From an uncultured Coriobacteriaceae bacterium (lineage in GTDB: Bacteria; Actinomycetota; Coriobacteriia; Coriobacteriales; QAMH01): a DNA stretch of 63,812 nt. The translations under genes and the position numbers were made by a program. Shown one piece after another: positions 11,661 to 61,036 of this stretch (its first letter is position 1; every line of letters starts with the position of its first letter). The notes under the pieces are model-generated. The model did no database searches, was not told the DNA's origin, and worked only from the letters and a program-made list of their open reading frames with translations. The stretch is taken from assembly GCA_900544245.1 (NCBI GenBank), contig UQUH01000004.1, forward strand, positions 1-63,812, read 5' to 3'.

Positions 11661-11935
11661 TCGAGGCCCATTTCTTTGCGAATCTGCTTCAGCGGCTTTG
11701 TCCTGCCCGCCTTCACGTCTTCATAGGCCGCTTCGAGGCGCTTGTTCAGGGCTCGTTCGTAAGCGGAGACCTCCTTGCGAAGTTGCTCCTGTGTCTCGTA
11801 ATAGTGCGCGTCCATGACGACGAGATCGGCTTTGCCGTTGCGCGTAATGTAGACAGGTCCGGGATTGTTTTGGCAGAGCTCGTAAATCTCGCCGATGTTC
11901 CTTTGAAGATCCGATGCGGTTCTCACGATGGGCAT
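11657..11935 (-). CDS. phd: Type II antitoxin, Phd/YefM family
   Basis: A 92-aa product from the internal ATG (cat 11933-11935): MPIVRTASDLQRNIGEIYELCQNNPGPVYITRNGKADLVVMD, a typical Phd/YefM N-terminus. The longer ORF-track frame (to 12223) overlaps the radical SAM gene, so I rejected it. Confidence 0.8.
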   Translation of the reverse strand: MPIVRTASDLQRNIGEIYELCQNNPGPVYITRNGKADLVVMDAHYYETQEQLRKEVSAYERALNKRLEAAYEDVKAGRTKPLKQIRKEMGLE

Positions 11936-11968
11936 GACGCACCTCCTTATCTGATAGCTGCATTTTAC

Positions 11969-12000
11969 CATGGTGTTCAGAAAATATTCTGAACACCATG
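11969..12000. promoter_or_regulatory. Inverted repeat with 14-bp arms (CATGGTGTTCAGAA-ATAT-TTCTGAACACCATG region) upstream of phd/parE; candidate operator
   Basis: Read directly: catggtgttcagaa and ttctgaacaccatg are exact reverse complements around a 4-nt centre. It lies 34-65 nt upstream of the phd start codon. Confidence 0.5.
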
Positions 12001-12024
12001 ACCAATACTTTCGCCTCTTCGAAT

Positions 12025-12059
12025 CGAGATCTCCCGGCTTCGCTTCGCTCGAAATGACA
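12025..12059. repeat. Copy of the CGAGAT..CTC..GCTTCGCT..CTCGAAATGACA repeat (family C)
   Basis: cgagatctcccggcttcgcttcgctcgaaatgaca. Compare 23083-23122, 27661-27765 and 43054-43085. Confidence 0.6.
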
Positions 12060-12087
12060 AGAACAGAGCGCGCCGCCATCTGTCCCC

Positions 12088-12699
12088 TCAAGCCCGTGGG
12101 CGGATGCGATAGCTCACGCCGAGCTCGTCGCATAGCTCCTGGCAGGCGCGCTCCTGCTCGTGGGTTATGGTGCCTCCCACCGTGGTGAGCACCACCGTCG
12201 GGACGTGGATTGCCGCGCGGCATGCGAACTCGAGCATCGCGGGATGGGCCTGCTCACCAAACTTGCTGCGCGTGAGCGCGAGATACTCGTCCGCGTCGGG
12301 GCTGTTGAGGCTGACCGAGACGGCGTCGACGATTCCTTCGAGCTCGGGCGTGACATCGCGTCCGTTGATGAGCGAACCCTGGCCGTTGGTGTTGATCCGC
12401 ACCGGCAGCTCCGTGTTCTCCTTCACCCAACGGGCGACTTCCTTGAGTGCGTCAAATGCTTCCATAGGCTCGCCGTAACCGCAGAAGACGAGCTCGGAAT
12501 AGCGCGAAAGGTCAAGCTCGCGCAGCTGGTCGATGACTTCCCCGGCCATGGGCTCGCGTTCGAGCCAGAGCACATCGTGGCCGTTGACGGTATCGGATTC
12601 GTTGCGGATGCAAAACGTGCAGCTGCATGGGCAACGATTGGTGAGGTTGACGTAGAGCGTGTCGCCGATCTCGTACAGTATGTTCATCACCTTGGTCAT
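12088..12699 (-). CDS. Radical SAM protein (small, TatD-associated type)
   Basis: A 203-aa product from the ATG at 12697-12699 (MTKVMNILYEIGDTLYVNLTNRCPCSCTFCIRN), carrying the CxxxCxxC radical-SAM cluster motif. Confidence 0.8.
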   Translation of the reverse strand: MTKVMNILYEIGDTLYVNLTNRCPCSCTFCIRNESDTVNGHDVLWLEREPMAGEVIDQLRELDLSRYSELVFCGYGEPMEAFDALKEVARWVKENTELPVRINTNGQGSLINGRDVTPELEGIVDAVSVSLNSPDADEYLALTRSKFGEQAHPAMLEFACRAAIHVPTVVLTTVGGTITHEQERACQELCDELGVSYRIRPRA

Positions 12700-12828
12700 A
12701 TGTGAGCTCCAGTTCGGTTTCGTTGTCGCGATTCGAGAGAATAGCCCTTCGTGTTGCCCCCGAAAACCCAGAATTCCAACATGCAAAACAAGTGACAGCA
12801 CCATCGAGGAGCAAAAACGCAGTTGAAT

Positions 12829-13062
12829 GTCGAAAAATGACGTTTTCCTAGGAATCTGGGAAGCGTCCTGTCGAAAAACGACGTTTTCCTAGGATTCGAG
12901 AGCGAAAAAGCCTAGGAAAGCGTCGAAAACGTGCATGACATGCCACATGACCCTAGGAAAACGTCGAAAACGTGCACGATGTGTCACGTGACCCTAGGAA
13001 AACGTGAAAAAGCTGCATGGGGCATCGCGTGACCCTAGGAAAACGTCATTTTCCTGCAGTTG
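12829..13062. repeat. Intergenic array of six copies of a CCTAGGAAAACGTC core with ~41-bp period (two in one orientation, four in the other)
   Basis: Read directly:
- tcgaaaaatgacgttttcctagga (12830-12853)
- tcgaaaaacgacgttttcctagga (12871-12894)
- then, inverted, cctaggaaagcgtcgaaaacgtgca, ccctaggaaaacgtcgaaaacgtgca, ccctaggaaaacgtgaaaaagctgca and ccctaggaaaacgtcattttcctgca. Confidence 0.8.
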
Positions 13063-13123
13063 CACGCGAAAGGGCCGCGAGCATAGTGCCCACGGCCCTT
13101 CACCTGCGACGCTACCAGAACCT

Positions 13124-14707
13124 CTACAGGTCGATGTACCAGATGCGCTCGATGTCGAGCGTCGCCTCCAAATCGCGGCGCACATTGGCGGGAACGGCCT
13201 GGTTGAGGTTGATGAGCACCTCGACCAGGGGATGCTCGGAATCCTTGGCGATCTGCATGGACTCGACGTTGATGCCTGCATCGCCAAACACCGTGCCGAT
13301 CTTGCCAATCTGGCCGGGTTTGTCCTCGTACTCGAGCACGATGAAATCCTTCATCGGCACGAAGTCGACGGGCAGGCCCATGAAGTTGATGATACGCGGC
13401 ATGTCCGAGGTCATATCGCGCGTGACGCTGATGGAGTACACGTCGTCACCACACGACGCTTCGATCTCAATATAGCTCGGATAGCTCTCCGAAAGCGGGT
13501 CGGTAGCGGTCTCGACGACGATGCCACGCTGCTCGGCGATATAGCTTGCGTTGATGATGTTGACGGTGACTTCGCTGTTGAACGTCACGCCACCCGCAAG
13601 CGCCGCCATTCCCAGGATCGTCGGATCCGTGTCTGCTATCTTGCCACATGCCGTGACCTTCAGCTTCTCGATGCCGCCACCAACGACCTGCGACAGAATC
13701 TCGCCGCCGCGCTGGGCAACGGGGATGAAGTACTTAAGCTGCGCCATGACATCGGCCGGGATGCGTGCGGCGTTCACCGCCGTGGCAACCGTCTTGCCCT
13801 CGAGACCGGCGATGACGTACTCGGCAATCTGCGTGGCAGCACGGGTCTGGGCCTCCTTAGTGGATGCGCCCAAATGCGGGGTGATGACGGCGTTCTCGAA
13901 CTTGTGGATGGGTGAACCGGAAACGGGCTCGTTCTCCCACACGTCGATGCCAGCGCCGGCAAGATGGCCGTTCTCGAGCGCATCGGCAAGCGCATCGAGG
14001 TCAACCAGACCGCCGCGGGCGACGTTGAGGACGATGGCGCCCTCCGGCATCTCGGCTAGCTGCTTGGCACCGATCATGCCAGTGGTCTCGGGGGTCTTGG
14101 GCATGTGCAGGGTGATGAAGTCGGATTGCTTGCACACCTCGTCGATGTCATCGAGCAGCGTGATGCCGTAGTGGGCGGCGCGCTCGGGCGGGCAGTACGG
14201 GTCATAGCCGATGAGCTTCATGCCAAAGGCGGCGGCGCGCTCGGCAACAAGCAGACCGACGTGACCGGTACCGAAGATGCCGAGCGTCTTGTCCTGGAGC
14301 TCCTTGCCCGTGAACTTGGAGCGGTCCCATTTGCCTTCCTTCATGGACGCGCTCGCAGCAGCGGTGTTGCGTGCGGTGGCGAGCATGAGCGCCATGGTCT
14401 GCTCGGCAGCGGACACGACGTTGGAGAGCGGTGCGTTGCACACGATAATGCCGCGCTCGGTAGCGGCCTCACGATCGATGTTGTCGACGCCCACACCGGC
14501 ACGGCCGATGATCTTGAGCTTGGTTCCGGCTTCGATGACCTCGCGGGTGACCGTCGTGGCAGAACGCACGATGAGCGCGTCATACTCGGGAATCATCTCG
14601 ACGAGTTCCTCAGGTGTGGTATCGGGCTTGAACGTGACTTCGTAGCCGGCATCCTCGAGCACGGCGATGCCAGCCTTGTTGAACTTCTCCGGAATCAGTA
14701 TCTTCAT
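13124..14707 (-). CDS. serA: D-3-phosphoglycerate dehydrogenase (long form with ASB/ACT domains)
   Basis: A 527-aa product from the ATG at 14705-14707 (MKILIPEKFNKAGIAVLEDAGYEV...), with GRAGVGVDNID and GIFGTGHVG (NAD motif) and a C-terminal regulatory region. Confidence 0.9.
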   Translation of the reverse strand: MKILIPEKFNKAGIAVLEDAGYEVTFKPDTTPEELVEMIPEYDALIVRSATTVTREVIEAGTKLKIIGRAGVGVDNIDREAATERGIIVCNAPLSNVVSAAEQTMALMLATARNTAAASASMKEGKWDRSKFTGKELQDKTLGIFGTGHVGLLVAERAAAFGMKLIGYDPYCPPERAAHYGITLLDDIDEVCKQSDFITLHMPKTPETTGMIGAKQLAEMPEGAIVLNVARGGLVDLDALADALENGHLAGAGIDVWENEPVSGSPIHKFENAVITPHLGASTKEAQTRAATQIAEYVIAGLEGKTVATAVNAARIPADVMAQLKYFIPVAQRGGEILSQVVGGGIEKLKVTACGKIADTDPTILGMAALAGGVTFNSEVTVNIINASYIAEQRGIVVETATDPLSESYPSYIEIEASCGDDVYSISVTRDMTSDMPRIINFMGLPVDFVPMKDFIVLEYEDKPGQIGKIGTVFGDAGINVESMQIAKDSEHPLVEVLINLNQAVPANVRRDLEATLDIERIWYIDL

Positions 14708-14915
14708 GACTATCCTCATTCTCTTGTTGCCATAATGAGACGGCGTAGCAAATGCAATCATTGTAGTCACCCTCCATCTCGGGCGATAAGGGCTTCCCCC
14801 TTTTGTTTCGACAAGCGTCATGAAAACTGTATATTTATATCGATTTGGCGGTTTTATCTCATAAAGTACGATTGAACACTCTTGATTTTACCGCCATGTC
14901 GCATATTTTAATCAT

Positions 14916-15917
14916 ATGACAAAACAGGCACACATCATCCTTGCCTACGAAAGCTCGCTCGCCTATTGGCGCAACCCAGCAGCGAAACGTGGGCGAATCC
15001 TAGACGCCGTCGAGGCGCGTAACTTTATCGATCGCGCGTGCGGAAGCGCTCACGTGCAGACACTCGACAGCGCCCTTTCGTCGGGCGTGCTCGCGGGAAT
15101 GAACAAGCCGCTTGACCTGCTCACCGTCAACCGAAACGAAAGACGCTCCACCAAACGGGCGCGATTCCATTGCGTGCAAACCGCCCTGCCAGACGGAGCA
15201 CTTGTCCTGGTTGACGAAACGACCCTTCCCGACGGCACAAGTCTGCATATCGCACTCACTAGCCCCGAATTCTGCTTCTTGCAGATGGCACGCTCGCTTG
15301 CATGGTTCGATTTGATCGCCCTCGGCTTCGAGCTCTGCGGGGACTACGCGCTTGTCCCCGATGCTCCACGCGGATTTCTTCCCCGCAGCTCCATCAGCAC
15401 ACCGGAGGGCCTTGCCACCTTCGCGGAAAGTGCCCATAACTTCACGGGAGCCAAGGCGGCTCGCAAGGCGGCCCGACAAATCCTGCAAGGATCGCGTTCG
15501 CCCAGGGAAACGAAGGTCTGCATGCTCGCGCATCTTCCCCGACTGCAGGGAGGAATGGGGTGCAAGGCCCCTCTGCTCGGCCAAGAAATCGAGGCGCCCG
15601 ATCCCGCCGCGCGCATCCTTGGCACGCGCACCTTCAAACCCGACCTCTATTGGTCCGAATACCGCATGGCCGTCGAGTACAGCAACCGCGCATGGCCATC
15701 GGCACAGGAGCGCCTGAACTACGACAAGCTCGTGCGCAATGCATACCGCATGCTCGGGATCACCGCCATATCGCTCGGGAAGGACGACTTGTCCGACGAC
15801 GCGGGCCTGCGGAAGCGGTTCGAGCTCGTCAACCGCAAATGCAAGCGGCGTTTGCAGGCGCCGAACGATCGGCATTTGGCTCGCCAAATCGAATTGCTCG
15901 AGTGGATGAACGACTAG
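14916..15917 (+). CDS. Hypothetical protein; C-terminus resembles the DUF559 / Vsr-like endonuclease fold
   Basis: 333-aa ORF. The C-terminal stretch FKPDLYWSEYRMAVEYSNRAW...RNAYRMLGITAISL resembles the D..W...VE.D pattern of DUF559-type proteins. No confident functional call. Confidence 0.45.
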   Translation: MTKQAHIILAYESSLAYWRNPAAKRGRILDAVEARNFIDRACGSAHVQTLDSALSSGVLAGMNKPLDLLTVNRNERRSTKRARFHCVQTALPDGALVLVDETTLPDGTSLHIALTSPEFCFLQMARSLAWFDLIALGFELCGDYALVPDAPRGFLPRSSISTPEGLATFAESAHNFTGAKAARKAARQILQGSRSPRETKVCMLAHLPRLQGGMGCKAPLLGQEIEAPDPAARILGTRTFKPDLYWSEYRMAVEYSNRAWPSAQERLNYDKLVRNAYRMLGITAISLGKDDLSDDAGLRKRFELVNRKCKRRLQAPNDRHLARQIELLEWMND

Positions 15918-16029
15918 CTCTCCAGGGCAATCAGCCATATCGTATTCGCTCTTTCGAGGCTCCCGTCTGGCTGTCTGTTCGCACATGCGCTACTATCGCT
16001 TGCAGTAACAACACGCGAAAGGATGCCCC

Positions 16030-16383
16030 ATGGCCTCAGCATACGATGTCATCGTCGATACCCCCAAGTACCACCTCCAGGGAAAGGCAAAGCTTGAGCT
16101 CTTGGGCGAGACGGCGCGTGCGCATCTCGACATCACCGATGTGGGCTCGCTTGACGGAGAGGGAACCCGCAACGGCAAGGAATTCGACATCTCTGGCGTC
16201 GCACACATTGACGGCAAGAACATCGAGTTCACCGCCCATGGCGCGACCTGGGCAAATAGCATCGATGTCAAGGCGCAGACGAGCATCGGCGAAGTCGTCA
16301 TCTACGGCACGATGACCGGCTACTCTGCAGGTGACGTCGTGGGCAACGACGCAGGCTTCGCGGGCCGCTGGGCCGACGTCTGA
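16030..16383 (+). CDS. Hypothetical small protein
   Basis: 117-aa ORF preceded by aaagga. No recognisable motif. Confidence 0.4.
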   Translation: MASAYDVIVDTPKYHLQGKAKLELLGETARAHLDITDVGSLDGEGTRNGKEFDISGVAHIDGKNIEFTAHGATWANSIDVKAQTSIGEVVIYGTMTGYSAGDVVGNDAGFAGRWADV

Positions 16384-17297: not shown

Positions 17298-18971
17298 GTG
17301 GACTACATACTCAGCAAATATTGCCCCCGCATCGAATTCGACTCGTACGAGGACTTCTACGACAACTTCAAGATCGACGTGCCCGAGAACTTCAACTTCG
17401 CCTATGACGTCGTTGACGAGTGGGCGCGTGTCGAGCCCGACAAGAAGGCCCTCGTGTGGATCAACGACGCTGGCGAGGAACGCGAGTTCACCTTCACGGA
17501 CATCTCGCTGCTCTCCAACCGCGCCGCCAACGCCTTCAGGAAGCTCGGCATCCGCAAGGGCGACGTCGTCATGCTGATGCTGCGTCGCCGTTGGGAATAC
17601 TGGGTGTGCGCCATGGCGCTGTGCAAGATCGGCGCCTCAATCATCCCGGCGACCATCCAGCTCACCTCGAAGGACATCGCGTACCGCGCGAACTCCGCAG
17701 CCGTCAAGATGCTCATCTGCGTCGATGACGACTACGTGGTCGAGCAGGTGGAGGGCGCGCTGCCCAACTCGCCCAGCATCAAAGAAAAGGTGCTCGTCGC
17801 GGGCAAACGCGACGGCTGGCTGTCCTTCGACGAGCTCATCGAGGACGAGAGCGACCAGTGGGAGCGTCCCACCGGCGAGGATGCCACCCAAATCGACGAC
17901 ATCATGCTCATCTACTTCACGAGCGGCACCACGGGCAACGCCAAGGCCGTGGAGCACAGCTTCAAGCACCCGCTCGGGCACATCCTCACCGCCAAATACT
18001 GGCAGCAAGTACGCGAGAACCGCCTGCACATGTCCGTGACCGACAGCGGCTGGGCCAAGTTCGGCTGGGGCAAGATCTACGGTCAGTGGATTGCCGGCGC
18101 CGCGATCTTCGCCTACGACATGGACAAGTTCGTACCCGCCAAGCTTCTGCAGGTCATGCAGGACTACGACCTCGCGACCTTCTGCGCGCCGCCCACCATG
18201 TACCGCTTCATGCTGCAGGAGGACGTCGCAGCCTACGACCTTTCCTCCATCGAGAACTTCGCGACCGCGGGCGAGCCGCTCAACGGCGAGGTGACCATCC
18301 AGTGGGAGAGGCTCACGGGCAAGAAGATCCGCGAGGGCTTTGGCCAGACGGAAGGCCCCGTGCTGCTGGCGACCTACCCGTGGATCGAGCCACGTCCCGG
18401 CTCCATGGGCAAGCCGAGCCCGCTGCTCAACATCAAACTGCTCGACGACGATGGCTACGAAGTCGCCGACGGTAGCGAGGGCGCTATCTGCGTCACCGGC
18501 CTCAAGGAGGCCTATCCGCCGGGCCTGTTCGTCGGCTACTACAACGATCCCGAGCGCACGGCCGAGGCTGTGGGTGGCGAATACTATAACCTGCATGACA
18601 TGGCATGGCGCGACACGGAAGGGTACTGCTACTTCGTCGGCCGCAACGACGACGTCATCAAGTGCTCGGGCTATCGCATCGGGCCGTTCGAGGTGGAGAG
18701 CGCGCTCGTGGCGCATCCGGCTGTCGTCGAGTGCGCGGTGACCGCCGCCCCCGACCCCGTGCGCGGCAAGGTCGTGAAGGCCTCCATCATCCTGGCCAAG
18801 GGCTACGAGCCGAGCGACGAGCTCACGAAGGAGCTGCAGGATCACGTCAAGCACACGACGGCGCCGTACAAGTATCCGCGTATCGTGGAATACGTCGATG
18901 ACCTACCCAAGACCATCGGCGGCAAGATCAAGCGCAAGATGATCCGCAACGCCGACGGGGTTACGGACTAG
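17298..18971 (+). CDS. AMP-forming acyl-CoA synthetase (medium-chain / ANL family)
   Basis: 557-aa ORF (GTG start) with YFTSGTTGNAKAV (AMP-binding P-loop), GQTEG, DMAWRDTEGYCYFVGRNDDVIK and GKIKR. Confidence 0.88.
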   Translation: MDYILSKYCPRIEFDSYEDFYDNFKIDVPENFNFAYDVVDEWARVEPDKKALVWINDAGEEREFTFTDISLLSNRAANAFRKLGIRKGDVVMLMLRRRWEYWVCAMALCKIGASIIPATIQLTSKDIAYRANSAAVKMLICVDDDYVVEQVEGALPNSPSIKEKVLVAGKRDGWLSFDELIEDESDQWERPTGEDATQIDDIMLIYFTSGTTGNAKAVEHSFKHPLGHILTAKYWQQVRENRLHMSVTDSGWAKFGWGKIYGQWIAGAAIFAYDMDKFVPAKLLQVMQDYDLATFCAPPTMYRFMLQEDVAAYDLSSIENFATAGEPLNGEVTIQWERLTGKKIREGFGQTEGPVLLATYPWIEPRPGSMGKPSPLLNIKLLDDDGYEVADGSEGAICVTGLKEAYPPGLFVGYYNDPERTAEAVGGEYYNLHDMAWRDTEGYCYFVGRNDDVIKCSGYRIGPFEVESALVAHPAVVECAVTAAPDPVRGKVVKASIILAKGYEPSDELTKELQDHVKHTTAPYKYPRIVEYVDDLPKTIGGKIKRKMIRNADGVTD

Positions 18972-43530: not shown

Positions 43531-43563
43531 ATGAGACACATTGGACAGGTACAGCTGTCTCAT
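43531..43563. repeat. Family B hairpin between convergent comF and nhaC; likely bidirectional terminator
   Basis: atgagacacattggacaggtacagctgtctcat, followed by tttt. It starts right after the comF stop and contains the nhaC stop (tca 43560-43562). Confidence 0.85.
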
Positions 43564-44867
43564 TTTCTGTCCGGCTTGTCGAGGGCGATGCTGATGAGGA
43601 CGCAGGCGAGCAACAGGAACTGGTAGAACAGAAACGGCATGATCTCGACGCTCGCGATACCGGCGAGGCTCGCTGCGACGAGGAGCTGCGCGCCATAGGG
43701 GATGATGCCCTGTCCGATGCAGCTGAAGATGTCGATGAGACTCGCCACTCGCACGGGTTCGATGCCGTACTCCTCGCCGATGTGCTTGGCGATGGGACCG
43801 GAAACCACGATGGCCACCGTGTTGTTGGCGCAGGCGATGTCGAGCAGCAACGTGAGCAAGCCACAACCGAGCTCGCCGCCGCGCTTGCCGGTGAAGTGCC
43901 GCTTAATGAACGCAAGAATCGACGCGAAGCCGCCGTATTCGCGCATGAGCGCGCTAATCGATGCGACGAGAATCGTCACGATCATCGTCTCGAACATCCC
44001 AGCCGTTCCCGTGCCCATGGCCGAGAACGCGCTCGCGAAATCGAGCGATCCCGTCGCTCCGCCCACAATGGCGAACAGCACGATGCCACCGCCAAGCACG
44101 AGGAAGACGTTGATGCCGCACAACGCGGCGATGAGTACGACGAAGTACGGTATCGCCTGCCAGATGTTGTATTCGAAGTCATCGAGCGCGGGTGTGCCGG
44201 CCATGATCGCCATCGCGATGAGGATGCCGAGCGTGATGAGCGCCGCAGGCAAGGCGATGCGGAAGTTGTTGAGGAACTTATCCTTCATGTTGACGCCCTG
44301 CGTGCGGGTTGCCGCGATCGTGGTGTCCGAAATGAACGAGAGGTTGTCGCCGAACATCGCGCCGCCGACGACGGTTCCCACGCACAACGGCAGATTGAAG
44401 CCCGCGCTGGCGGCGACGGTCACGGCGATGGGGGTGAGCACCGTGATGGTGCCGACGCTCGTTCCCATGGCAAGCGAGATGATGCAGGCGATGACGAAGA
44501 GGCCGGGAATGGCCGCTTGGGCGGGCAGTATGTCGAGCAGCAGGTTTGCCGTGCTCTCCGCGCCACCGGCTGCGCTCGCAATGCCGGAGAACGCGCCGGC
44601 CATCAGGAAGATGAAGAGCATGATGACGATGTTGTCGTCACCGATGCCGCGTGCGCATACGTGGATCTTCTCGTCAAAGGACAGCGAGCGGTTCTGCAGG
44701 AACGCGACGACGAGCGCGATGACGAAGGCCACGACGACGCTGACCACGTAGAAGCCCATCTGCCCTTCGGCAGGCGCGACGTACTCGAAGTAGATGCCGC
44801 ATCCGAGGTAGAGCACCAGGAAGACGACGATGGGCAGCAATGCCTTTGCGTTTGGTTTCTTATCCAT
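43560..44867 (-). CDS. Na+/H+ antiporter NhaC-family membrane transporter
   Basis: A 435-aa product from the ATG at 44865-44867 (MDKKPNAKALLPIVVFLVLYLG...). Polytopic membrane protein with an NhaC-like pattern. Confidence 0.78.
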   Translation of the reverse strand: MDKKPNAKALLPIVVFLVLYLGCGIYFEYVAPAEGQMGFYVVSVVVAFVIALVVAFLQNRSLSFDEKIHVCARGIGDDNIVIMLFIFLMAGAFSGIASAAGGAESTANLLLDILPAQAAIPGLFVIACIISLAMGTSVGTITVLTPIAVTVAASAGFNLPLCVGTVVGGAMFGDNLSFISDTTIAATRTQGVNMKDKFLNNFRIALPAALITLGILIAMAIMAGTPALDDFEYNIWQAIPYFVVLIAALCGINVFLVLGGGIVLFAIVGGATGSLDFASAFSAMGTGTAGMFETMIVTILVASISALMREYGGFASILAFIKRHFTGKRGGELGCGLLTLLLDIACANNTVAIVVSGPIAKHIGEEYGIEPVRVASLIDIFSCIGQGIIPYGAQLLVAASLAGIASVEIMPFLFYQFLLLACVLISIALDKPDRK

Positions 44868-44970
44868 GCGAGCATGATAGACCAAATCGCGCTCGTCGGC
44901 AGCACGCCCATGTGGGCACTTGGTGGTATCATCTGCGCATGTGCATTTAGGCAAAGGCGGTGCAAACAGC

Positions 44971-46134
44971 ATGGTGGGAGAGAATCTTCCGCGTTCCCTG
45001 AAATGGCAGCCAGCGCTCGAGGGGTGGGTTCCCAGCGCGCTGACCACGGCGAATCTTGATGATGCGGCAGCTCGGCTGACGGTGCTCGACCAGCGCCTCC
45101 TGCCACATTCGATTGACTACATCGATTGCTTCACCTCCAAACAGGTATGCGACACGATCGAGGAGCTTGCGGTGCGTGGGGCCCCGGCCATTGGCATTGC
45201 CGGCGCATTTGCCCTCGTGCTGTGGGCGAAGAACGAGTGGCCCGTCATCCGTGAGGCGAAACGCCAGGCCAATCCCAAGAGCGACGTCGATTCCGTCACC
45301 GTGTTCGCGAGCAAGCTCGAGCAGCGCGGACGCGAGATCGCGGCGGTGCGCCCGACGGCCGTCAACCTCACCTGGGCGATCAACGAGCTCGTCGCACCGG
45401 CTCGCATGGCGGCGTATCGGGGCGACACCGTCGAACACATCACGACCGAGCTCGAGGAGCAGGCCTGCCAGCTCATGGAGGACGAGATCTACTCGTGCAA
45501 GCTCATCGGCGAGAACGGCGCCGTCATCATCTCCACGCTCGCCCAGCGCCTGGGACGTCCCCTGCGCATCGAGACGCACTGCAACGCCGGCGCACTCGCG
45601 ACGGCTGCCTGGGGTACGGCCACATCCATCATCTATCACGCCTTCGAGAACGGTGATGTCGAAAAGGTCTGGGTCGACGAGACCCGTCCCGTCGAGCAAG
45701 GCGCGCGTCTCACCGCCTGGGAACTCGAGCAAGCCGGCGTGCCTTATACGCTCATCAGCGACAGCATGGCCGGTTCCATCATGGGGCAGGGACTCGTGGA
45801 TGCCGTCATCGTGGGCGCCGACCGTGTCTGCGCGAACGGCGACGTCGCCAACAAGATCGGGACCTATCCGCTTGCCATCGTCGCGAGCTACCACGGCGTG
45901 CCGTTCTTCGTCGCCGCACCACACTCGACCTTCGACAAGTCGCTGACCACGGGCGACGAGGTCGTTATAGAGCAGCGCGACGCCACCGAGGTACGTTGCA
46001 TGCCCTACGGCCACCAATGGCTGCCCATAGCCCCCACCGAATGCGACGTGTTCAACCCGGCATTTGACATCACGCCCAACGAGCTCATCACCGGCGTCAT
46101 CACCGAGACGGGTATCGAGTTCGCCGGCGAATGA
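44971..46134 (+). CDS. mtnA: S-methyl-5-thioribose-1-phosphate isomerase (eIF-2B alpha/beta/delta family)
   Basis: A 387-aa product from the ATG at 44971, with LTVLDQRLLP, VRGAPAIGIAGAF, THCNAGALAT and GADRVCANGDVANKIGTY motifs. Confidence 0.88.
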   Translation: MVGENLPRSLKWQPALEGWVPSALTTANLDDAAARLTVLDQRLLPHSIDYIDCFTSKQVCDTIEELAVRGAPAIGIAGAFALVLWAKNEWPVIREAKRQANPKSDVDSVTVFASKLEQRGREIAAVRPTAVNLTWAINELVAPARMAAYRGDTVEHITTELEEQACQLMEDEIYSCKLIGENGAVIISTLAQRLGRPLRIETHCNAGALATAAWGTATSIIYHAFENGDVEKVWVDETRPVEQGARLTAWELEQAGVPYTLISDSMAGSIMGQGLVDAVIVGADRVCANGDVANKIGTYPLAIVASYHGVPFFVAAPHSTFDKSLTTGDEVVIEQRDATEVRCMPYGHQWLPIAPTECDVFNPAFDITPNELITGVITETGIEFAGE

Positions 46135-54475: not shown

Positions 54476-54537
54476 TTATTGTCAATGCACATTTTGCAAT
54501 TATTTTGCGATTGGCAAGAGCGGTGCGACCGGGACAA

Positions 54538-54570
54538 CCAGACAAAAGTGTCCCGGCGAGTTTTGTCTGG
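54538..54570. repeat. CCAGACA hairpin element (second copy)
   Basis: ccagacaaaagtgtcccggcgagttttgtctgg, immediately 3' of the carrier-protein gene. Confidence 0.75.
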
Positions 54571-54574
54571 TGCC

Positions 54575-54820
54575 CTACTCCTCCTCGGCGAGGCGCAGCA
54601 CCATCTCGTAGATGCCCTGGGCGCTGTTGAAGTTGGCCGGGACGACCTCCTTGGCGGGAACCGCGATGTCGAACTCGTCGTCGATTGCGTTGATGATCGC
54701 GAGGATATCGAAGGAGTCGAGGAAGCGCTCGTCGACCAGCGCCGTGCAGTTCTCGTAGTCGACGTCCTCCTCGACGTCCTTGAGCAGATCGATGATGGCC
54801 TCGAGCGTGATGTCGTCCAT
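54575..54820 (-). CDS. Carrier protein (DltC/ACP-like, phosphopantetheine-binding)
   Basis: An 81-aa acidic product from the ATG at 54818-54820 (MDDITLEAIIDLLKDVEE...ERFLDSFDILAIINAIDDEF). The DS(F/L)D serine motif sits at the start of helix 2. The longer ORF-track start lies inside a hairpin repeat. Confidence 0.75.
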   Translation of the reverse strand: MDDITLEAIIDLLKDVEEDVDYENCTALVDERFLDSFDILAIINAIDDEFDIAVPAKEVVPANFNSAQGIYEMVLRLAEEE

Positions 54821-54845
54821 GACGTACGTTCCTTTCATCTTGTGA

Positions 54846-54878
54846 ATGAGACGGTTTAGTCTGACCAATTTGTCTCAT
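54846..54878. repeat. Family B hairpin element (divergent loop)
   Basis: atgagacggtttagtctgaccaatttgtctcat. Confidence 0.75.
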
Positions 54879-54900
54879 TGCTCACCGGACCCTACGGGTG

Positions 54901-54931
54901 ATGAGACAGTTGCTCAGAGCGAGCGTCTCAT
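54901..54931. repeat. Family B hairpin element containing the decarboxylase stop codon
   Basis: atgagacagttgctcagagcgagcgtctcat. The tca at 54928-54930 is the TGA stop of the upstream - strand gene. Confidence 0.85.
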
Positions 54932-56112
54932 TTGCGTGGCGTGTTGAGCGTGCTCGTCTCGATGAAGTCGCGGGCGAGCTCGCATCCACCATCATAACGC
55001 AAGACCACGCGAGGCATCGTGCGGCTCAGGAACAGGTGCACGCCCTCGGTGACGGAGTACGCGCCGGCATTGGCGAAGGCAAGCACGTCGTCGAGCTCGA
55101 GACTCTCGAGGCTGACCTCGCGCACAAGCACGTCGTTGACCGTGCACAGGCTGCCGCACAGCGTCCAGGAACGCTCATCGCGCTCGCGCATGGCATCGGC
55201 CAGCGCAGAGAGGTTGGCGGTCACGGGCACCTTGAGACCCATCACCTGCCCCGCGTAGGTGAGGTGGTTGATGCCACCGTCAAGGATGCAGTAGTTCGTG
55301 CCCTCGTTCTCCTTGATGTCGACCACGCGGGTGAGATAGGTGCCGCAGGACGCCGCGAAGAAACGCCCCATCTCGATGGTGACCTCCACGTCCTTTGCTA
55401 GCTCACGGATGGCGGGCGCGAGTTCGCGAGCCGGGGAAAGGTCATCGGAGAAGTCCTCGTCGGCGAAGTAGGGCACGGCGAGGCCGGGGCCGTATTCGAG
55501 GCGCTGCACCTTGAAGCTGTGCTCGTCGCGCAGCTCACCGATAAGCGCATGCAGCTTCTCGATCTCGCGGATCTGGTGCTTGAGCTTCTTGCGCTGGGTT
55601 CCCACGAAGTAGTGGAGCCCCACGATTTCGAGGTGCGGGAAGTCCGTGCGTTTGTCGATAACCTCCAGTAAATCGGCTTTCGACATGCCGAACTGACTGC
55701 CGGAGTTCAGTCGCAAGAGCACCTTGACCGTGGTGGATGCCTGCGTCGCGCATTCCTCGATGAGTTTCACGTGCAATTTCGATTCGGCAGTGAGCACGCC
55801 GACGCGGTAGCGGATGGCGCGACTCACGTCTTCGGCCTGCTTGTTCACGCCCGAGTACACGATCTGCGGTGCGGAGATGCCCACGTCCTCGCAGATGGCG
55901 AGCTCGCCGGGGCTACACACCTCGAGGCGGATTCCATGATCCGCCGCGGCTCCCGCGAGGAAGGGGTTGGCCTTCATCGCGAAGCAGAGACGCACCTCGT
56001 CGTCGAATATATCGGCGACCTTATCCAGCCGGCGCCAGAACTCCTCGACGTCGAAGACGAAGGTCGGCGTGCCATACTCCTGCGCGATGGTGAGAAGTTC
56101 GCTGTTATCCAT
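54928..56112 (-). CDS. PLP-dependent decarboxylase, Orn/DAP/Arg decarboxylase family (fold type III), non-canonical
   Basis: A 394-aa product from the ATG at 56110-56112 (MDNSELLTIAQEYGTPTFVFD...). It has the PLP-lysine motif FAMKAN and a C-terminal GSLCTVND motif. The usual GGG loop reads YGPGLAV, and EPGR reads EMGR. Confidence 0.8.
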   Translation of the reverse strand: MDNSELLTIAQEYGTPTFVFDVEEFWRRLDKVADIFDDEVRLCFAMKANPFLAGAAADHGIRLEVCSPGELAICEDVGISAPQIVYSGVNKQAEDVSRAIRYRVGVLTAESKLHVKLIEECATQASTTVKVLLRLNSGSQFGMSKADLLEVIDKRTDFPHLEIVGLHYFVGTQRKKLKHQIREIEKLHALIGELRDEHSFKVQRLEYGPGLAVPYFADEDFSDDLSPARELAPAIRELAKDVEVTIEMGRFFAASCGTYLTRVVDIKENEGTNYCILDGGINHLTYAGQVMGLKVPVTANLSALADAMRERDERSWTLCGSLCTVNDVLVREVSLESLELDDVLAFANAGAYSVTEGVHLFLSRTMPRVVLRYDGGCELARDFIETSTLNTPRK

Positions 56113-56144
56113 ATCAGATCCTTCGTTTATGGGACAAGGGGACA

Positions 56145-56218
56145 GTGAGACACATTGGACAGGTACATCTGTCTCATCGGGGACCATGAGACAGATGTAC
56201 CTGTCCAATGTGTCTCAC
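56145..56218. repeat. Head-to-head inverted pair of family B hairpin elements (cattggacagg subtype)
   Basis: gtgagacacattggacaggtacatctgtctcat (56145-56177) and atgagacagatgtacctgtccaatgtgtctcac (56186-56218) are reverse complements of each other, 8 nt apart. Confidence 0.85.
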
Positions 56219-56219
56219 T

Positions 56220-57722
56220 TCATTTTAGCTCCAGCAGCGCCTGGCGGTCGATCTTGCCGTTCTTGGTGAGGGGCATCGTGTCCAGCTGGCGAATCTTGTT
56301 GGGCACCATATACTGCGGCAGGACGTCCTTGAGCGTAGCCGCAAGGGAGTCCTTCTCGCATGCGCCCACGTAGAACAGGAGGATGCGCTTTTTCCGCGGC
56401 TCGTAGACCGTGCACGCGCGCTCCACACCGTCGGTGGCATGCGCCGCCGCATCGATTTCGCCGAGCTCGATGCGCTGGCCCAGATGCTTGATCTGGTGAT
56501 CCTTGCGCCCGCGGTACACGAAGCGCCCGACCTTGTCGAGCATGCCGATATCGCCCGTGCGATACATCGTCTCGGGAAATGCCGGCGTAAGCGGGTTTTG
56601 CACGAAGGCCTCGGCCGTCTTCTCCGGGTCGTTGTAGTAGCCGAGTGCCAGGCAGGTGCCGACGACGCAGATCTCGCCCTCGACGTCGGGCTCGTCGATT
56701 AGCCGGTCCTCCTCGTCGAGTAAGAAGACGCGCTCGTTGGGGAAGGGCCTGCCCATGGGGATGACCTCGTCCTTCTCGTAATCGCGCACGATGATGTGGT
56801 ACGTGCAGTTGCAGGTCACCTCGGTGGGGCCATACACGTTCACGAACATGGCGTCGGGCAGCGCGGCGCGCCAGACGGCGAGCTGCTTGGGCGGCATGAC
56901 CTCGCCGCTGAAGATGACCATGCGAATCGTCGTGGGCACACGGTAATCGAAACCACCCATCATCGAGACGAAGCACATGGCGCTCACGGCCCAAGTGCAG
57001 ACGGTGACCTCGCGTTCGACGAGGAAGTCCATGAGGTTCACGGGGATGCTGAAGTACTCGCGCGGGATCATCTGCACGGTCGCGCCGGTGGCAAGGGCAC
57101 TGTAGATGTCCTTGACCGAGACATCGAAGTCGAACGGCGCCTGGTTGGCCAGCACGTCGTCTTTCGTTATGTCGAATATCGAGACGAAGGAGCCGATGAA
57201 ATCGATCACGGAGCGATGGCACACGGCCACGCCCTTGGGAGTGCCCGTGGAGCCGGAGGTGAAATTGACGTACAGCGGGTCGAGGTCGAGCGATGCGGCG
57301 CGGCGGCTGGCGAGCAGCGCGCTATCGGTGCGCGTGTCGATGATGTCCTCGAGGCAGACGACGATGTGGCCCTCGAAGGCGCTGCGTGCGGCGTCGATGT
57401 TACGCGCATCGGCGATCACGAGCGGGGCGGCGAGCTTGTCGACGATGGCGCGGGCACGGGTTGCGGGCTGGCGCACGTCGATGATCGAGTAGCAGCAGCG
57501 CGCGTAGACTGCGCCGAACATGGCGGCGAGCGCGAGCGTGCTCTTCTCCATGTAGCAGGCGATGGGGCTGAGCTCGTCGACGTGCGCGGCAAGGTAGGAC
57601 CCGACGGCGCGGGCGCGGCGCATGAGGTCGAGGAAGCTGACCTCTCCGTTCTCGTCCGCGAACGCGATCTTATCCGGCAGCTCGCAGGCCCTCGCCTCGA
57701 GCCACTCGAGTACGTTAGTCAT
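56220..57722 (-). CDS. Stand-alone amino-acid adenylation enzyme (DltA-like, ANL superfamily)
   Basis: 500-aa ORF with the A-domain core motifs FTSGSTGTPKGV (A3), NVYGPTEVT (A5), YRTGD (A7), GRKDHQIKHLGQRIELGEI (A8) and PLTKNGKIDR (A10). No fused carrier or condensation domain. Confidence 0.85.
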   Translation of the reverse strand: MTNVLEWLEARACELPDKIAFADENGEVSFLDLMRRARAVGSYLAAHVDELSPIACYMEKSTLALAAMFGAVYARCCYSIIDVRQPATRARAIVDKLAAPLVIADARNIDAARSAFEGHIVVCLEDIIDTRTDSALLASRRAASLDLDPLYVNFTSGSTGTPKGVAVCHRSVIDFIGSFVSIFDITKDDVLANQAPFDFDVSVKDIYSALATGATVQMIPREYFSIPVNLMDFLVEREVTVCTWAVSAMCFVSMMGGFDYRVPTTIRMVIFSGEVMPPKQLAVWRAALPDAMFVNVYGPTEVTCNCTYHIIVRDYEKDEVIPMGRPFPNERVFLLDEEDRLIDEPDVEGEICVVGTCLALGYYNDPEKTAEAFVQNPLTPAFPETMYRTGDIGMLDKVGRFVYRGRKDHQIKHLGQRIELGEIDAAAHATDGVERACTVYEPRKKRILLFYVGACEKDSLAATLKDVLPQYMVPNKIRQLDTMPLTKNGKIDRQALLELK

Positions 57723-57746: not shown

Positions 57747-57777
57747 ATGAGACAGCGAGACTGACGGCTTGTCTCAT
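57747..57777. repeat. Family B hairpin element (gagactga loop subtype)
   Basis: atgagacagcgagactgacggcttgtctcat, flanked by caaa and tttttt. Confidence 0.85.
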
Positions 57778-57799
57778 TTTTTGATGGTACCGGCACATA

Positions 57800-57830
57800 A
57801 TGAGACAACGAGACTGAGCGCTTGTCTCAT
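57800..57830. repeat. Family B hairpin element (same subtype, direct orientation) containing the stop of the NhaC-like gene
   Basis: atgagacaacgagactgagcgcttgtctcat. The tca at 57827-57829 is the TGA stop. Confidence 0.85.
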
Positions 57831-59386
57831 TTGTCGGTCACCTTTTTGCCGACGGTCTTGCGCAGGACGAAGAGCGCGCCAACGATGAGGACGATGCCGA
57901 TGATCAGGCAAATCACCCAGTTCTGCACGAAGCCCGCGATGATGAAGCAGACAAACGAGACGGACGCGACCGTGAGCACGTAGGGCAGCTGCGTCTGAAC
58001 GTGCACGATGTGGTTCACGTTCGCACCGGCAGACGCCATGATCGTCGTATCCGAAATGGGCGAGCAGTGATCGCCACAGACGGCGCCGGCAAGGCACGCG
58101 GAGATGCCGATGGTAAGCAGCTCGGGCTGGCCGGCGAAGATGGGCAGCACGATGGGGATGAGAATGCCGAAGGTGCCCCAGCTCGTGCCCGTGGCAAACG
58201 CAAGGCCAAGGGCGACGAGGAAGATGATGGCGGGCAGCATGCTGTACAGGCCGGCGGCGGCGCCCTCCATGAGGCTGGCGACGAAGACATCGGCGCCAAG
58301 CGCGCTTGTCGCGAGCTTGAGCGTGAGCGCGAAGGTGAGGATGAGCAGCGCCGGGACCATCGCCCTGAAGCCGTCGACGATGCACACAGCCGCATCGCCG
58401 AAGCTGATGACGCGACGGCACAACAGGTAGATGAACGTGATGACGAGCGCGATGATGGAGCCCCAGGGCAAGCCGACTGATGCGCTCGTATTGCCAAACG
58501 CCAGGGCGAGATCGCCGAAGCCCTCGGCTTCCGGATCCCAGAATCCGCCGATGTACATCATACCGATGACGCAGCATACGATGAGGATGATGACGGGGAT
58601 GAGCATGTCAACGAGACGCGAGCGCGGGTTGTCGAGCTTCTCCTCGCTGCCAAGCGAGCCGAGCATGCCATCACGGTAGGCCTCGATTTCGGCACGAGCC
58701 ATGGGGCCGTAATCGAAGCCCATGACGACGATGACGATGATGAAGACGATGGTGAGCAGCGAGTAGAAATTATAGGGAATCGCCTGGATGAAGAGCTGAA
58801 TGCCCGTGATACCGGAATTCAAATCGTTAGCCGTGGCCGAGACAGCTGCAGCCCACGAAGATATGGGAGCGATCATGCAGATGGGCGCCGCCGTCGCGTC
58901 GATGATGTAGGACAGCTTGGCACGCGAGATCTTCTGCTCGTCGGTCACGGGGCGCATGACCGCGCCCACCGTGAGACAGTTGAAGTAGTCATCGATGAAG
59001 ATGAGCACACCGAGGGCAAAGGTCGCGAGCTGCGCGCCCACACGCGTCTTGATGTGACGGGCGGCCCAGGCGCCGAAGGCAGCCGAAGCGCCCGACTTGT
59101 TGATGAGCGCGACCATGATGCCGAGCATCACGAGAAATATGAAGATGCCGGCATTGGCCGAGTCGCTAATGGCGTTGATAAATCCAACGGCCATCGCGTC
59201 ATCGCCCTCGCCTATCTCACCGGAGATGATGAAGTTAATGGTGTTGACCGGGTCGAAGCCCGCAAGCAACAGCGCACCTACGACGATGCCGACGAAAAGC
59301 GACGTATAGGTTTCCTTGGTGATGAGCGCCAAGACGATGGCGACGATGGGCGGCACGAGCGCCCAGAAGGTTCCGATAAACTCCAT
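57827..59386 (-). CDS. NhaC-family antiporter-like membrane transporter
   Basis: 519-aa polytopic ORF (MEFIGTFWALVPPIVAIVLALITKE...), with an NhaC/MleN-like pattern. A paralogue-type of 43560-44867. Confidence 0.75.
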   Translation of the reverse strand: MEFIGTFWALVPPIVAIVLALITKETYTSLFVGIVVGALLLAGFDPVNTINFIISGEIGEGDDAMAVGFINAISDSANAGIFIFLVMLGIMVALINKSGASAAFGAWAARHIKTRVGAQLATFALGVLIFIDDYFNCLTVGAVMRPVTDEQKISRAKLSYIIDATAAPICMIAPISSWAAAVSATANDLNSGITGIQLFIQAIPYNFYSLLTIVFIIVIVVMGFDYGPMARAEIEAYRDGMLGSLGSEEKLDNPRSRLVDMLIPVIILIVCCVIGMMYIGGFWDPEAEGFGDLALAFGNTSASVGLPWGSIIALVITFIYLLCRRVISFGDAAVCIVDGFRAMVPALLILTFALTLKLATSALGADVFVASLMEGAAAGLYSMLPAIIFLVALGLAFATGTSWGTFGILIPIVLPIFAGQPELLTIGISACLAGAVCGDHCSPISDTTIMASAGANVNHIVHVQTQLPYVLTVASVSFVCFIIAGFVQNWVICLIIGIVLIVGALFVLRKTVGKKVTDK

Positions 59387-59518: not shown

Positions 59519-61036
59519 ATGTTCGAACAAGACCACATCTGGGTTGGACAGGGCGAAGTCCCCTGCAACCTACTTCTCAACCAGGCAAACCGTCATGGCC
59601 TCATCGCCGGCGCATCCGGCACGGGCAAGACCGTCACCCTCAAGGTGCTCGCCGAAGGCTTCTCGAAAGCCGGCGTGCCCGTCTTCATGGCCGATGTGAA
59701 GGGCGATGTGACCGGTATTGCGCAAGCAGGCGACGATACCGAGAACATCACCAAGCGTGTCGAGAAGTTCGGCATTGAGGACTGGCAGCTCGAGGGTTGC
59801 CCCACGCGCCTATGAGACATGCTTGATGACCAGGGCATTCCCGTGCGTATCACGATCTCGGACATGGGGCCCATCATGCTCTCGCGCCTACTCGAGCTCA
59901 CTGAAGTGCAGGAAGGTGTGCTCAACATCGTCTTTCGCATTGCCGATGACCAGCAAATGCTGCTCATCGACCTCAAGGACCTGCGTGCGATGCTCAACTA
60001 CGTCTCGGAGCACTCCAAGGAGATCGAGACTACGTACGGCAAGGTCTCGTCGCAGTCGGTTGGCGCGATCCTGCGCGCGCTCATTGCCATCGAGGACCAG
60101 GGTGGCGACACCTTCTTCGGCGAGCCCAACCTCGACCTCAACGACTGGTTCGCAACTGACAAGAACGGCCAGGGCTACGTCAACGTGCTCAATGCGGCGC
60201 GCCTCATCAATAGCCCGCAAATCTACGCGATGTTCCTGTTGTGGATGCTCAGCGAGCTGTTCGAGACGCTGCCCGAGGTGGGCGATGGTGACAAGCCCAA
60301 GTTCGTCTTCTTCTTCGACGAGGCACACCTGCTCTTCAATGGCATGCCCAAGGAGCTACTCGACAAGATCGTCCAGGTCGTGAAGCTCATCCGCTCGAAG
60401 GGCGTGGGCGTGTACTTTATCACGCAGTCACCGTCTGATATCCCCGACGAGGTACTCGCGCAACTCTCGAACCGCATCCAGCACGGACTGCGCGCCTACA
60501 CCCCAGCCGAGCAGAAAGCCGTGAAGGCCGCCGCGCAATCCTTCCGCGAGAACCCGGCGTTCAACGCGAAGGACAAGATTCTCGAGCTTGGCACGGGCGA
60601 AGCGCTCGTCTCGTTTCTGGATGAAGAAGGCAAGTCCTGCATCGTCGAGTACGCAAAGATATTGCCGCCGCAGTGCCGCATGGCTGCCGCCGACCCCGAA
60701 GTCATCGACCGGGTGCTTGCTGCACAGGAAGCGCTCATGAGCAAGTACGGCGAGGCGATCGACCGTGAATCGGCTTACGAGCTCATCAGCAAGCAGGCCG
60801 AAGCGCTCGACGAGGAAGCCAAGCAGGCTGCCGAGCAGGCGCAAGCCGACATCGAGGCTGCCGAGGCCGAGAAACGGAAGGCGAAGGAGGCCGAAAAGGC
60901 CGCCGCGGCCGAGGAGAAGCGCGCCCAGAAGGCGCAGCAAGAGGCCGTCAAGCAGGTGGGAAGCGTGCTCGGGCAGATTGGTCGCGAGGCGTCGCGTCAG
61001 ATCATCCGCGGCATCTTTGGCGCGCTCAAGAAGTGA
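59519..61036 (+). pseudogene. DUF853 / HerA-like P-loop ATPase (YjgR family) interrupted by one in-frame TGA at 59813-59815
   Basis: Two same-frame ORFs (59519-59815 and 59819-61036). The N-terminal part has the Walker A GASGTGKT. The C-terminal part has VFFFDEAHLLF (Walker B), RSKGVGVYFITQSPSDIP and a coiled-coil tail. The junction reads CPTRL*DMLDDQGIPVR. Confidence 0.75.

Follow-up and report, generated by a model that had tools for sequence, protein, structure and literature searches.

Three consecutive, co-directional minus-strand genes in a 63.8-kb stretch of DNA from an uncultured Coriobacteriaceae bacterium (assembly GCA_900544245.1, contig UQUH01000004.1; the whole stretch of 63,812 nucleotides is referred to here as the window) appear, on balance, to be the cytoplasmic module that makes the donor for a Dlt-like pathway of envelope acylation, which would add a cationic amine by way of aspartate or glutamate decarboxylation. 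The genes encode a stand-alone adenylating enzyme (ligase), a fold-type-III pyridoxal 5'-phosphate (PLP) decarboxylase and a small carrier protein, together termed the trio. A first-pass annotation of the window had proposed these three genes from the DNA letters, with an NhaC-type transporter and feoAB as neighbors. The open reading frames (ORFs), their motifs and the neighboring genes were all recovered as described there (Table 1).

The trio is conserved as a group. A species-representative genome set, with one genome per species, was scanned with two peptide patterns specific for the decarboxylase family, LEVCSPGEL and DGG[IM]NH[LV][TN]Y. The scan returned 435 stretches, each of which was confirmed by tblastn, and the best 80 of these 435 supplied the gene-order and flank counts given below. 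Where the contig allowed the test, the ligase gene lies directly upstream of the decarboxylase gene (68 of 72 loci) and the carrier gene directly downstream of it (74 of 77 loci). Because the same genes are kept in the same ligase-decarboxylase-carrier order in ~95% of related loci across several phyla, the grouping far exceeds chance, which supports the trio as a functional unit. The Coriobacteriia among the best 80 loci include Slackia exigua, Olsenella, Tractidigestivibacter and Eggerthellaceae metagenome-assembled genomes (MAGs). The remaining taxa comprise Lachnospiraceae (Butyrivibrio, Roseburia), Erysipelotrichaceae (Bulleidia, Solobacterium), Gemmiger (Oscillospiraceae), Anaerovibrio (Negativicutes) and one Paludibacteraceae genome (Bacteroidota). 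The closest relatives of the window trio, with 84-96% protein identity, are found in uncultured gut Coriobacteriia MAGs.

Clustering of the flanking ORFs revealed two additional families beside the trio, a membrane-bound O-acyltransferase (MBOAT) of ~520 amino acids and an SGNH-like protein of 310-500 amino acids. Among the 46 loci with at least 5 kb on each side of the trio, the MBOAT is encoded in the flank of 39 and the SGNH-like partner in that of 35. A five-gene operon that comprises the trio, a DltB-like MBOAT and a putative DltD-like SGNH protein is thus the usual arrangement across genomes. A role in the cell envelope, one of two roles offered in the first-pass annotation, is the best reading. 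The window itself, together with L003, L004 and L008, is among the seven loci that have no MBOAT in the flank, and tblastn across the 63.8 kb detected no MBOAT, DltD-like protein or second decarboxylase homologue. The description of the trio as an orphan without a transferase nevertheless holds for the window only. In assemblies of three sister species that hold a trio 84-86% identical to that of the window, an MBOAT/SGNH pair is located on a separate contig: CAAEKX01 (trio L002, pair L083), CABRZR01 (trio L008, pair L160) and CABSKV01 (trio L005, pair L219). As seen in these three species, the operon is split over two loci in the clade to which the window belongs.

The partner MBOAT matches PF03062 with 61-71 bits (cut-off 27) and reaches 156-165 bits with the DltB model TIGR04091 (cut-off 375), scores that characterize it as DltB-like but not as a DltB equivalog. 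Its C-terminus conforms to F/Y-x-Y-x-x-F/Y in 55 of 56 cluster members. The commonest ending is GGFMYANF followed by the stop codon, and this is also the ending of the L160 copy from a sister species. This ending corresponds to the F-x-Y-x-x-F acyl-shuttle hexapeptide defined for DltX and PatA, in which a tyrosine relays the acyl group between the MBOAT and the serine of the SGNH protein; the motif resides on the microprotein DltX in Dlt and is fused to the MBOAT in acetyl-CoA-dependent systems of the PatA type (PMC12148441). The SGNH-like partner exhibits an N-terminal hydrophobic anchor helix and invariant G-x-S and D-x-x-H-L-N motifs. Its hhalign comparison with true DltD yielded a weak match (61% probability, E = 8e-5), and a Foldseek search with the structural model returned Enterococcus DltD (6pfx, 6o93) as the top full-length matches, followed by SGNH esterases. 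The partner is therefore described here as a probable DltD-like SGNH protein.

Fourteen of the 46 loci with sufficient flank (L044, L047 and 12 more) contain two to four MBOAT copies around a single trio, several of them with SGNH-like partners. This arrangement suggests that one donor module may feed several acceptor-specific transferase pairs. In several Firmicutes loci the system is bordered by CapD-like, glycosyltransferase family 2 (GT2) and RmlA-like genes, and the presence of such polysaccharide genes fits a wall glycopolymer as the acceptor.

The ligase matches PF00501 (193 bits) and PF13193 in Pfam, and narrowly passes the NCBIfam model TIGR01733, 'amino acid adenylation domain' (321.8 bits, cut-off 317.4). 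It misses the cut-offs of the DltA models TIGR01734 (270.8 versus 559.85) and NF003417 (279.5 versus 476). The core motifs SGSTGTPKG, FDFDVS, NVYGPTE, YRTGD, GRKDHQIKHLGQRIELGEI and NGKIDR are all present in the translation. The ten specificity residues, which the first-pass annotation had singled out for extraction, were read from an alignment of 163 ligase homologues. The code columns were checked with a GrsA-PheA fragment, which reads the canonical DAWTIAAICK at these positions. The window ligase has the pocket code DVKTISVCNK, and the family code is D-V-K-[IVT]-[LMIAG]-S-[LVI]-C-N-K, with K239, S301, C330 and N331 invariant in ~140 homologues. In contrast, the true DltA enzymes of L007, L009 and L013 have the code DLYVLCSVAK. 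The two codes differ at five or six of the eight variable positions, and the DltA selectivity cysteine at position 301 is replaced by serine in the trio ligase.

The retention of Asp235 indicates that the ligase substrate has an amino group, and the invariant K239 suggests that the bound substrate carries a second carboxylate. Lysine or arginine at position 239 is typical of adenylation domains whose substrate has a distal carboxylate, such as those that activate glutamate, aminoadipate and iso-Asp/iso-Glu; DAKDLGVVDK is an example of a glutamate code. The pocket lysine thus suggests an acidic amino acid as the substrate. Among the fetched loci, adenylate-forming enzymes that are also linked to an MBOAT and have no Asp235 were observed in L204, L169, L217, L220, L159, L149 and L209, with codes such as VMFYIGGDVK. 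The missing Asp235 suggests that these belong to related MBOAT systems exporting acyl groups other than amino acids.

The start of the decarboxylase gene was assigned to the ATG at 56112, which has a GAAGGA ribosome-binding site and agrees with the starts of homologues. A longer, TTG-started ORF reaching 56208 is not supported. The protein passes the cut-offs of PF02784 (93.6 bits) and PF00278 (55.4 bits). It contains the FAMKAN, YGPGLAV and EMGR motifs. In an alignment of 12 family sequences, no variation was seen in the lysine, in the YGPGL loop, in EMGR or in the catalytic residues K47, H167, E247, R250, C323 and Y352. The lysA model TIGR01048 yields 205 bits versus a cut-off of 297.9, so that the equivalog level is missed, in agreement with the earlier impression that this is no routine LysA. 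The best match in the PDB is BtrK (7ru7, named as L-glutamyl-[BtrI ACP] decarboxylase, ACP denoting acyl carrier protein), which scores 129 bits with the single sequence versus 105 for the best LysA, and 177 versus 159 bits with the family profile; the sequence identity to BtrK is ~25%. The analogy with butirosin biosynthesis drawn in the first-pass annotation is supported by these scores and, marginally, by the fold.

Local sequence features divide the two groups in the same way. BtrK and the decarboxylase family have in common G-T-Q, L-C-T and a long loop after DGG(I/M)(N/H)H; the family reads DGGINHLTY followed by the long loop, and LC-T-x-N-D. The LysA motifs G-S-Q, the R-P-x-x-Y segment and C-E-S/T are absent from the family (LysA 2p3e and 1twi read GMNDL..RP..Y and C-E-T/S). 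In LysA, the R-P-x-x-Y segment, which follows D-x-G-M-N-D, and the glutamate of C-E-S-x-D hold the distal L-centre of diaminopimelate (DAP). The AlphaFold2 model of the decarboxylase has a mean predicted local distance difference test (pLDDT) score of 83, its top Foldseek match is again 7ru7, and the family lies at TMq ~0.8. From its sequence, the protein is classed as a competent enzyme of the BtrK/LysA branch and not as a LysA equivalog; by analogy with BtrK, it is predicted to act on the aminoacyl group while this is tethered to the carrier.

Relatives of the decarboxylase are publicly annotated as 'diaminopimelate decarboxylase' or 'alanine racemase'. The long homologues P0084, P0066 and P0055 merely have N-terminal extensions or loop insertions, and no decarboxylase-carrier fusion was found among the homologues. 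A ligase-decarboxylase fusion does exist: in L166 (Lachnospiraceae), a single 997-residue protein is encoded at 4692-7685, with the genes for the carrier, MBOAT and SGNH-like partner downstream of it.

The carrier had no Pfam match above threshold. It weakly matches ACP models in NCBIfam and the DltC models NF003464 (27.3 versus 68) and TIGR01688 (20.3 versus 52.35), in the latter two cases below the cut-offs. A profile built from 14 carrier homologues nevertheless matches solved aminoacyl, prolyl and D-alanyl carriers with E values of 1e-9 to 3e-7, namely the aminoacyl carrier protein 4h2s, PigG, PltL and DltC. Ser36, within DSFD, and a P-x-NFNS motif are invariant across the 14 sequences.

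These properties can be combined into a four-step scheme. Judging by its family membership, the ligase would activate an amino acid and thioesterify it to the phosphopantetheine arm of the carrier. The pocket code makes L-Asp or L-Glu the most likely substrate, which would be attached by its side-chain carboxyl as in VinN/FlvN and BtrJ. The PLP enzyme would then strip the free alpha-carboxyl on the carrier, leaving beta-alanyl- or gamma-aminobutyryl-S-carrier; decarboxylation is placed on the carrier because of the gene order, the natural ligase-decarboxylase fusion and the relationship to BtrK. Finally, the DltB-like MBOAT would carry the acyl group through the membrane and transfer it to the tyrosine in its own C-terminal F-x-Y-x-x-F motif, from which the anchored DltD-like SGNH protein would pass it to an extracellular polymer such as teichoic acid or wall polysaccharide, thereby adding a cationic amine. 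This last step is proposed because the partners are found in other genomes and in the sister species. The gene content, conservation and family relationships used here are observed, and the substrate, product and acceptor are predictions from sequence.

A wider and more tentative proposal, to which we give somewhat less than even odds, is that many gut and rumen anaerobes place a non-proteinogenic omega-amino acyl group, beta-alanyl or gamma-aminobutyryl, on an envelope polymer. This would be an undescribed second cationic modification, chemically distinct from D-alanylation and parallel to it. The group would be made by decarboxylation of carrier-bound Asp or Glu, and its export would depend on an MBOAT of the DltB-DltX-fusion type together with a DltD-like SGNH protein. 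The taxa concerned would include Coriobacteriia, Lachnospiraceae (for example Roseburia and Butyrivibrio), Gemmiger, Erysipelotrichaceae and some diderm taxa.

Several observations weigh against the donor-module interpretation. The generic lysA model still gives the decarboxylase its top NCBIfam score, and by fold BtrK is barely ahead of LysA (Foldseek TMq 0.84 versus 0.80-0.82), so that the distinction depends on sequence scores and motifs. The SGNH assignment is weak: the model has a pLDDT of 68 and a TMq of 0.35 to DltD, the partner has no Pfam match above threshold, and GDSL_2 appears as a weak match in 4 of 12 members. The unlinked MBOAT/SGNH pair was seen in three sister species, a set that does not include the genome of the window. 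Activation of a side-chain carboxyl by a DltA-like enzyme is something that we infer from the pocket residues. The 34-bp hairpins in the trio spacers, described below, could uncouple the expression of the three genes in this genome. Lastly, about 12 loci have an identical or nearly identical ligase code (DVK.. S.CNK) with the carrier gene directly next to the ligase gene and no decarboxylase in the fetched flank; these include L091, L124, L114, L115, L125, L111, L118, L229, L230 and L235. Such operons indicate that the decarboxylase is an optional module. This fits on-carrier tailoring, with the undecarboxylated group transferred in those genomes, and also fits a role of the decarboxylase in substrate supply.

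The latter role, in which the decarboxylase would make the ligase substrate from a free amino acid as alanine racemase supplies D-Ala for Dlt, is considered unlikely. Operons with the same ligase code and no decarboxylase would then draw the substrate from general metabolism, and most characterized members of the fold family do use free substrates. However, the pocket lysine suggests that the loaded substrate keeps a carboxylate, which a decarboxylated common amino acid would not; the nearest solved relative works on a carrier-bound substrate; and in 74 of 77 loci the decarboxylase gene sits between the ligase and carrier genes, with a ligase-decarboxylase fusion in L166. It is also quite improbable that the substrate is meso-DAP, loaded via its L-centre carboxyl and decarboxylated at the D-centre to L-lysyl-S-carrier, with the MBOAT/SGNH pair lysylating the envelope polymer. 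The top rank of the lysA model would agree with such a reaction. The residues lost relative to LysA (RP..Y and the glutamate of C-E-S) are precisely those that hold the L-centre, as expected if that end of the molecule were a thioester, and the invariant K239 could hold the distal carboxylate. O-lysyl teichoic acids, moreover, have been reported in some actinomycetes. DAP is ranked below Asp and Glu for two reasons: the pocket seems to be of a size for Glu and not for Lys, and with lysine freely available the loading and decarboxylation of DAP would be unparsimonious. The pocket has bulky residues (L, M, I, V) at positions 299 and 322, nearer to Glu- than to Lys-, Orn- or aminoadipate-sized codes, and BtrK outscores every LysA.

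The iron-related genes next to the trio (feoAB and a DtxR-type repressor), the membership of SbnH and FslC in the same decarboxylase superfamily, and the fact that the window encodes no transferase would together suit a soluble-metabolite route in this lineage, for example to an amine-containing siderophore precursor as made with SbnH or FslC, and no envelope role. Such a route is very unlikely. The feoAB linkage is not conserved even in sister species, L008 having other downstream genes, and the neighborhood was accordingly rejected as a clue to iron or siderophore metabolism. Neither an NRPS-independent siderophore (NIS) synthetase nor a condensation domain or thioesterase is encoded nearby, an intact MBOAT/SGNH pair with the shuttle motif is kept elsewhere in the clade, and the ligase code is that of the MBOAT-linked operons. 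Least credible of all is the notion that the trio consists of ordinary genes, a housekeeping LysA beside an ordinary DltA/DltC pair. The public names of the relatives point in this direction, and of the named families those of DltA and DltC come closest to the ligase and the carrier. Yet the lysA, DltA and DltC scores are all below their cut-offs, the distal-site motifs of LysA are missing, residue 301 of the ligase is Ser and not Cys, and L007 encodes a true dlt operon alongside the system. A related scenario considered in the first-pass annotation, an ordinary DltA/DltC pair with dltB and dltD located elsewhere, is correct insofar as DltB- and DltD-like partners do lie elsewhere; it fails in that the ligase, carrier and MBOAT miss the Dlt cut-offs and the pocket code differs.

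The donor-module interpretation places the trio closest to Dlt among known systems. Both have a stand-alone adenylating enzyme that loads, or here is predicted to load, a small carrier, an MBOAT with a membrane-anchored partner (in the present system probably of the SGNH type) and an F-x-Y-x-x-F shuttle motif, and protein sizes and gene order are comparable. The present system differs in the PLP decarboxylase gene inserted between those of the ligase and the carrier, in the ligase code, in scores for the ligase, carrier and MBOAT that all lie below the Dlt equivalog cut-offs, in its coexistence with a true dlt operon in some genomes and in its division between two loci in the window's clade. 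Such coexistence is best seen in L007 (Eggerthellaceae), where dltA, dltB and dltD at 11665-16348 on the minus strand are convergent to and directly after the five-gene system. Their products pass the canonical models (DltA 483 versus 476, DltB 460 versus 375, DltD 199 versus 150), and their position beside the five genes indicates that the system is distinct from Dlt. No dltC was identified beside dltA/dltB/dltD in L007. Ligases with a DltA-type code also occur in L009 and L013, and L010 contains partial matches at the end of a contig.

BtrI/BtrJ/BtrK of butirosin biosynthesis, which convert Glu-S-ACP to gamma-aminobutyryl-S-ACP, provide the closest solved relative of the decarboxylase and a precedent for the proposed tethering of the substrate to a small carrier via the side-chain carboxyl. 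In contrast to the present system, they are followed by antibiotic tailoring enzymes and have no MBOAT/SGNH pair. The loading enzyme BtrJ is an ATP-grasp ligase and not an adenylation-domain enzyme. The VinN/VinL/VinO and FlvN/FlvL/FlvO systems have the same architecture as the trio, with an adenylation enzyme, a stand-alone ACP and a PLP decarboxylase that acts on the aminoacyl-ACP; the product of the Flv system is reportedly beta-alanyl-ACP. They supply beta-amino-acid starter units for macrolactam polyketides in secondary-metabolite clusters of Actinomycetes, where VinM, a second ligase, and the acyltransferase VinK feed a polyketide synthase (PKS); the present system, by contrast, occurs in gut anaerobes at probable envelope loci. 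Genes for a second ligase, an acyltransferase or a PKS were detected neither in the window nor in those related loci that were inspected, and the latter have MBOAT and SGNH genes in their place. VinN loads 3-methylaspartate on VinL and VinO decarboxylates it on the ACP, and FlvN takes Asp (PMC11284099).

The C-terminal acyl-shuttle hexapeptide on the MBOAT and a separate partner, here a probable SGNH protein, are shared with the PatA/PatB, AlgI/AlgJ/AlgX, WssH and related MBOAT-SGNH polymer O-acyltransferases. These systems use acyl-CoA donors and no carrier protein (PMC12148441). The present system joins a Dlt-type carrier-protein donor with a PatA-type fused shuttle motif. The exosortase-A trio has the same composition of AMP-forming ligase, fold-type-III decarboxylase and carrier protein. 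The link to it that was mentioned in the first-pass annotation did not hold up, as TIGR03098 gives 190.4 versus 592.35 and TIGR03099 180.1 versus 478.45, the taxa are different, and the exosortase/PEP-CTERM context is absent here. No published description of an adenylation/decarboxylase/carrier module tied to an MBOAT/SGNH pair was found, as the first-pass annotation had supposed, with the reservation that the literature coverage was incomplete and novelty is unproven. All components are of known kinds and precedents exist for all of the steps; what seems not to have been described is their combination and how widely it is distributed.

D-alanylation of teichoic acids sets surface charge and affects both cationic-peptide resistance and host immune signalling. 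It has hitherto been treated as the sole carrier-protein-dependent MBOAT/SGNH pathway. The data presented here point to a second family with its own ligase specificity and an integral decarboxylase, which is represented by the 435 matches and occurs in abundant gut commensals and in oral and vaginal Coriobacteriia. Its architecture is mechanistically informative, as the carrier donor of Dlt is joined to the fused shuttle motif of acetyl-CoA-dependent MBOATs. An omega-aminoacyl ester, should this prove to be the product, would represent new envelope chemistry. Such an ester would not have the alpha-amino ester arrangement of D-alanyl esters and might be more stable, with possible consequences for peptide resistance, phage adsorption and recognition by the host.

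Table 1 Features of the trio locus and associated repeats (positions in the window).
Feature	Position	Strand	Remarks
Adenylating enzyme (ligase) gene	56220-57722	minus	500 aa; DltA-like, stand-alone; predicted to load the carrier
Fold-type-III PLP decarboxylase gene	54928-56112	minus	394 aa; BtrK-like, not LysA; predicted to act on the tethered aminoacyl group
Carrier protein gene	54575-54820	minus	81 aa; Ser36 in DSFD is the phosphopantetheine attachment site
NhaC-family transporter gene	57827-59386	minus	PF03553, 157 bits; upstream of the trio
REP-like palindrome pair	57748-57829		NhaC-family/ligase spacer; pattern matches at 57748, 57801
REP-like palindrome pair	56146-56217		Ligase/decarboxylase spacer; pattern matches at 56146, 56187
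REP-like palindrome pair	54847-54930		Decarboxylase/carrier spacer; pattern matches at 54847, 54902
Terminator-like hairpin	54527-54576	minus	Directly 3' of the carrier stop; -24.1 kcal/mol, z = -1.9, weak
Promoter-like site for feoA	54485-54458		TTGACA-16-TAATAT
Repeat copies in the window	17242, 27626, 31572, 42945, 43532, 46132, 46185, 54094, 54847, 54902, 56146, 56187, 57748, 57801, 61059		

The three spacers around and inside the trio are ~105 nucleotides each, versus ~15-60 nucleotides in other taxa, and contain members of a repeat family, TGAGACA-N15-17-TGTCTCA. These palindromes of 29-31 nucleotides resemble repetitive extragenic palindromes (REP) and bacterial interspersed mosaic elements (BIME), and 15 copies are present in the window versus 0.04 expected. 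They are intergenic in the regions inspected and often paired, the members of a pair being reverse complements of each other. Among the fetched loci, the family is almost confined to the clade of the window (L001-L005, L008). In the mRNA of the spacer at 56113-56225 (minus strand), two repeats form a perfect 34-bp hairpin (-69.8 kcal/mol, z = -11), and this ligase/decarboxylase element is also present in the sister species L003, L004 and L008. Hairpins of this kind may stabilize or attenuate the trio transcript. The hairpin that follows the carrier stop and the promoter-like site that precedes feoA suggest where the transcript terminates; the former probably marks its end.

One TGAGACA half-site falls within a HerA-like (PF05872) gene at 59519-61036 on the plus strand, where it contributes to an in-frame TGA at 59813-59815 that breaks the reading frame. 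The gene could be a pseudogene, or the TGA a sequencing error or a repeat scar.

The trio is flanked upstream by the NhaC-family transporter gene and downstream by feoA, feoB and the gene for the DtxR-type repressor. The transporter gene (cluster c31) is upstream of the ligase in L003 and L008 and in no other locus, and its product is a doubtful member of the system, one conceivable role being the import of a substrate. A further NhaC-family (PF03553) gene, at 43560-45047 on the minus strand, lies less than 15 kb away from it.

The window also encodes another AMP-binding enzyme of 557 amino acids (17298-18971, plus strand), the C-terminal third of which is 30% identical to the trio ligase, and a FabH-like ketosynthase (4368-5573, plus strand); neither has an apparent link to the trio. 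Finally, the segment at 5703-12005 is a low-GC island, with a GC content of ~0.50 versus 0.60 and values at third codon positions (GC3) as low as 0.39. It encodes a Fic/DUF4172 protein, a MutH/Sau3AI-like endonuclease, a C5 cytosine methyltransferase and a DUF4238 protein, and is probably a horizontally acquired restriction-modification island.

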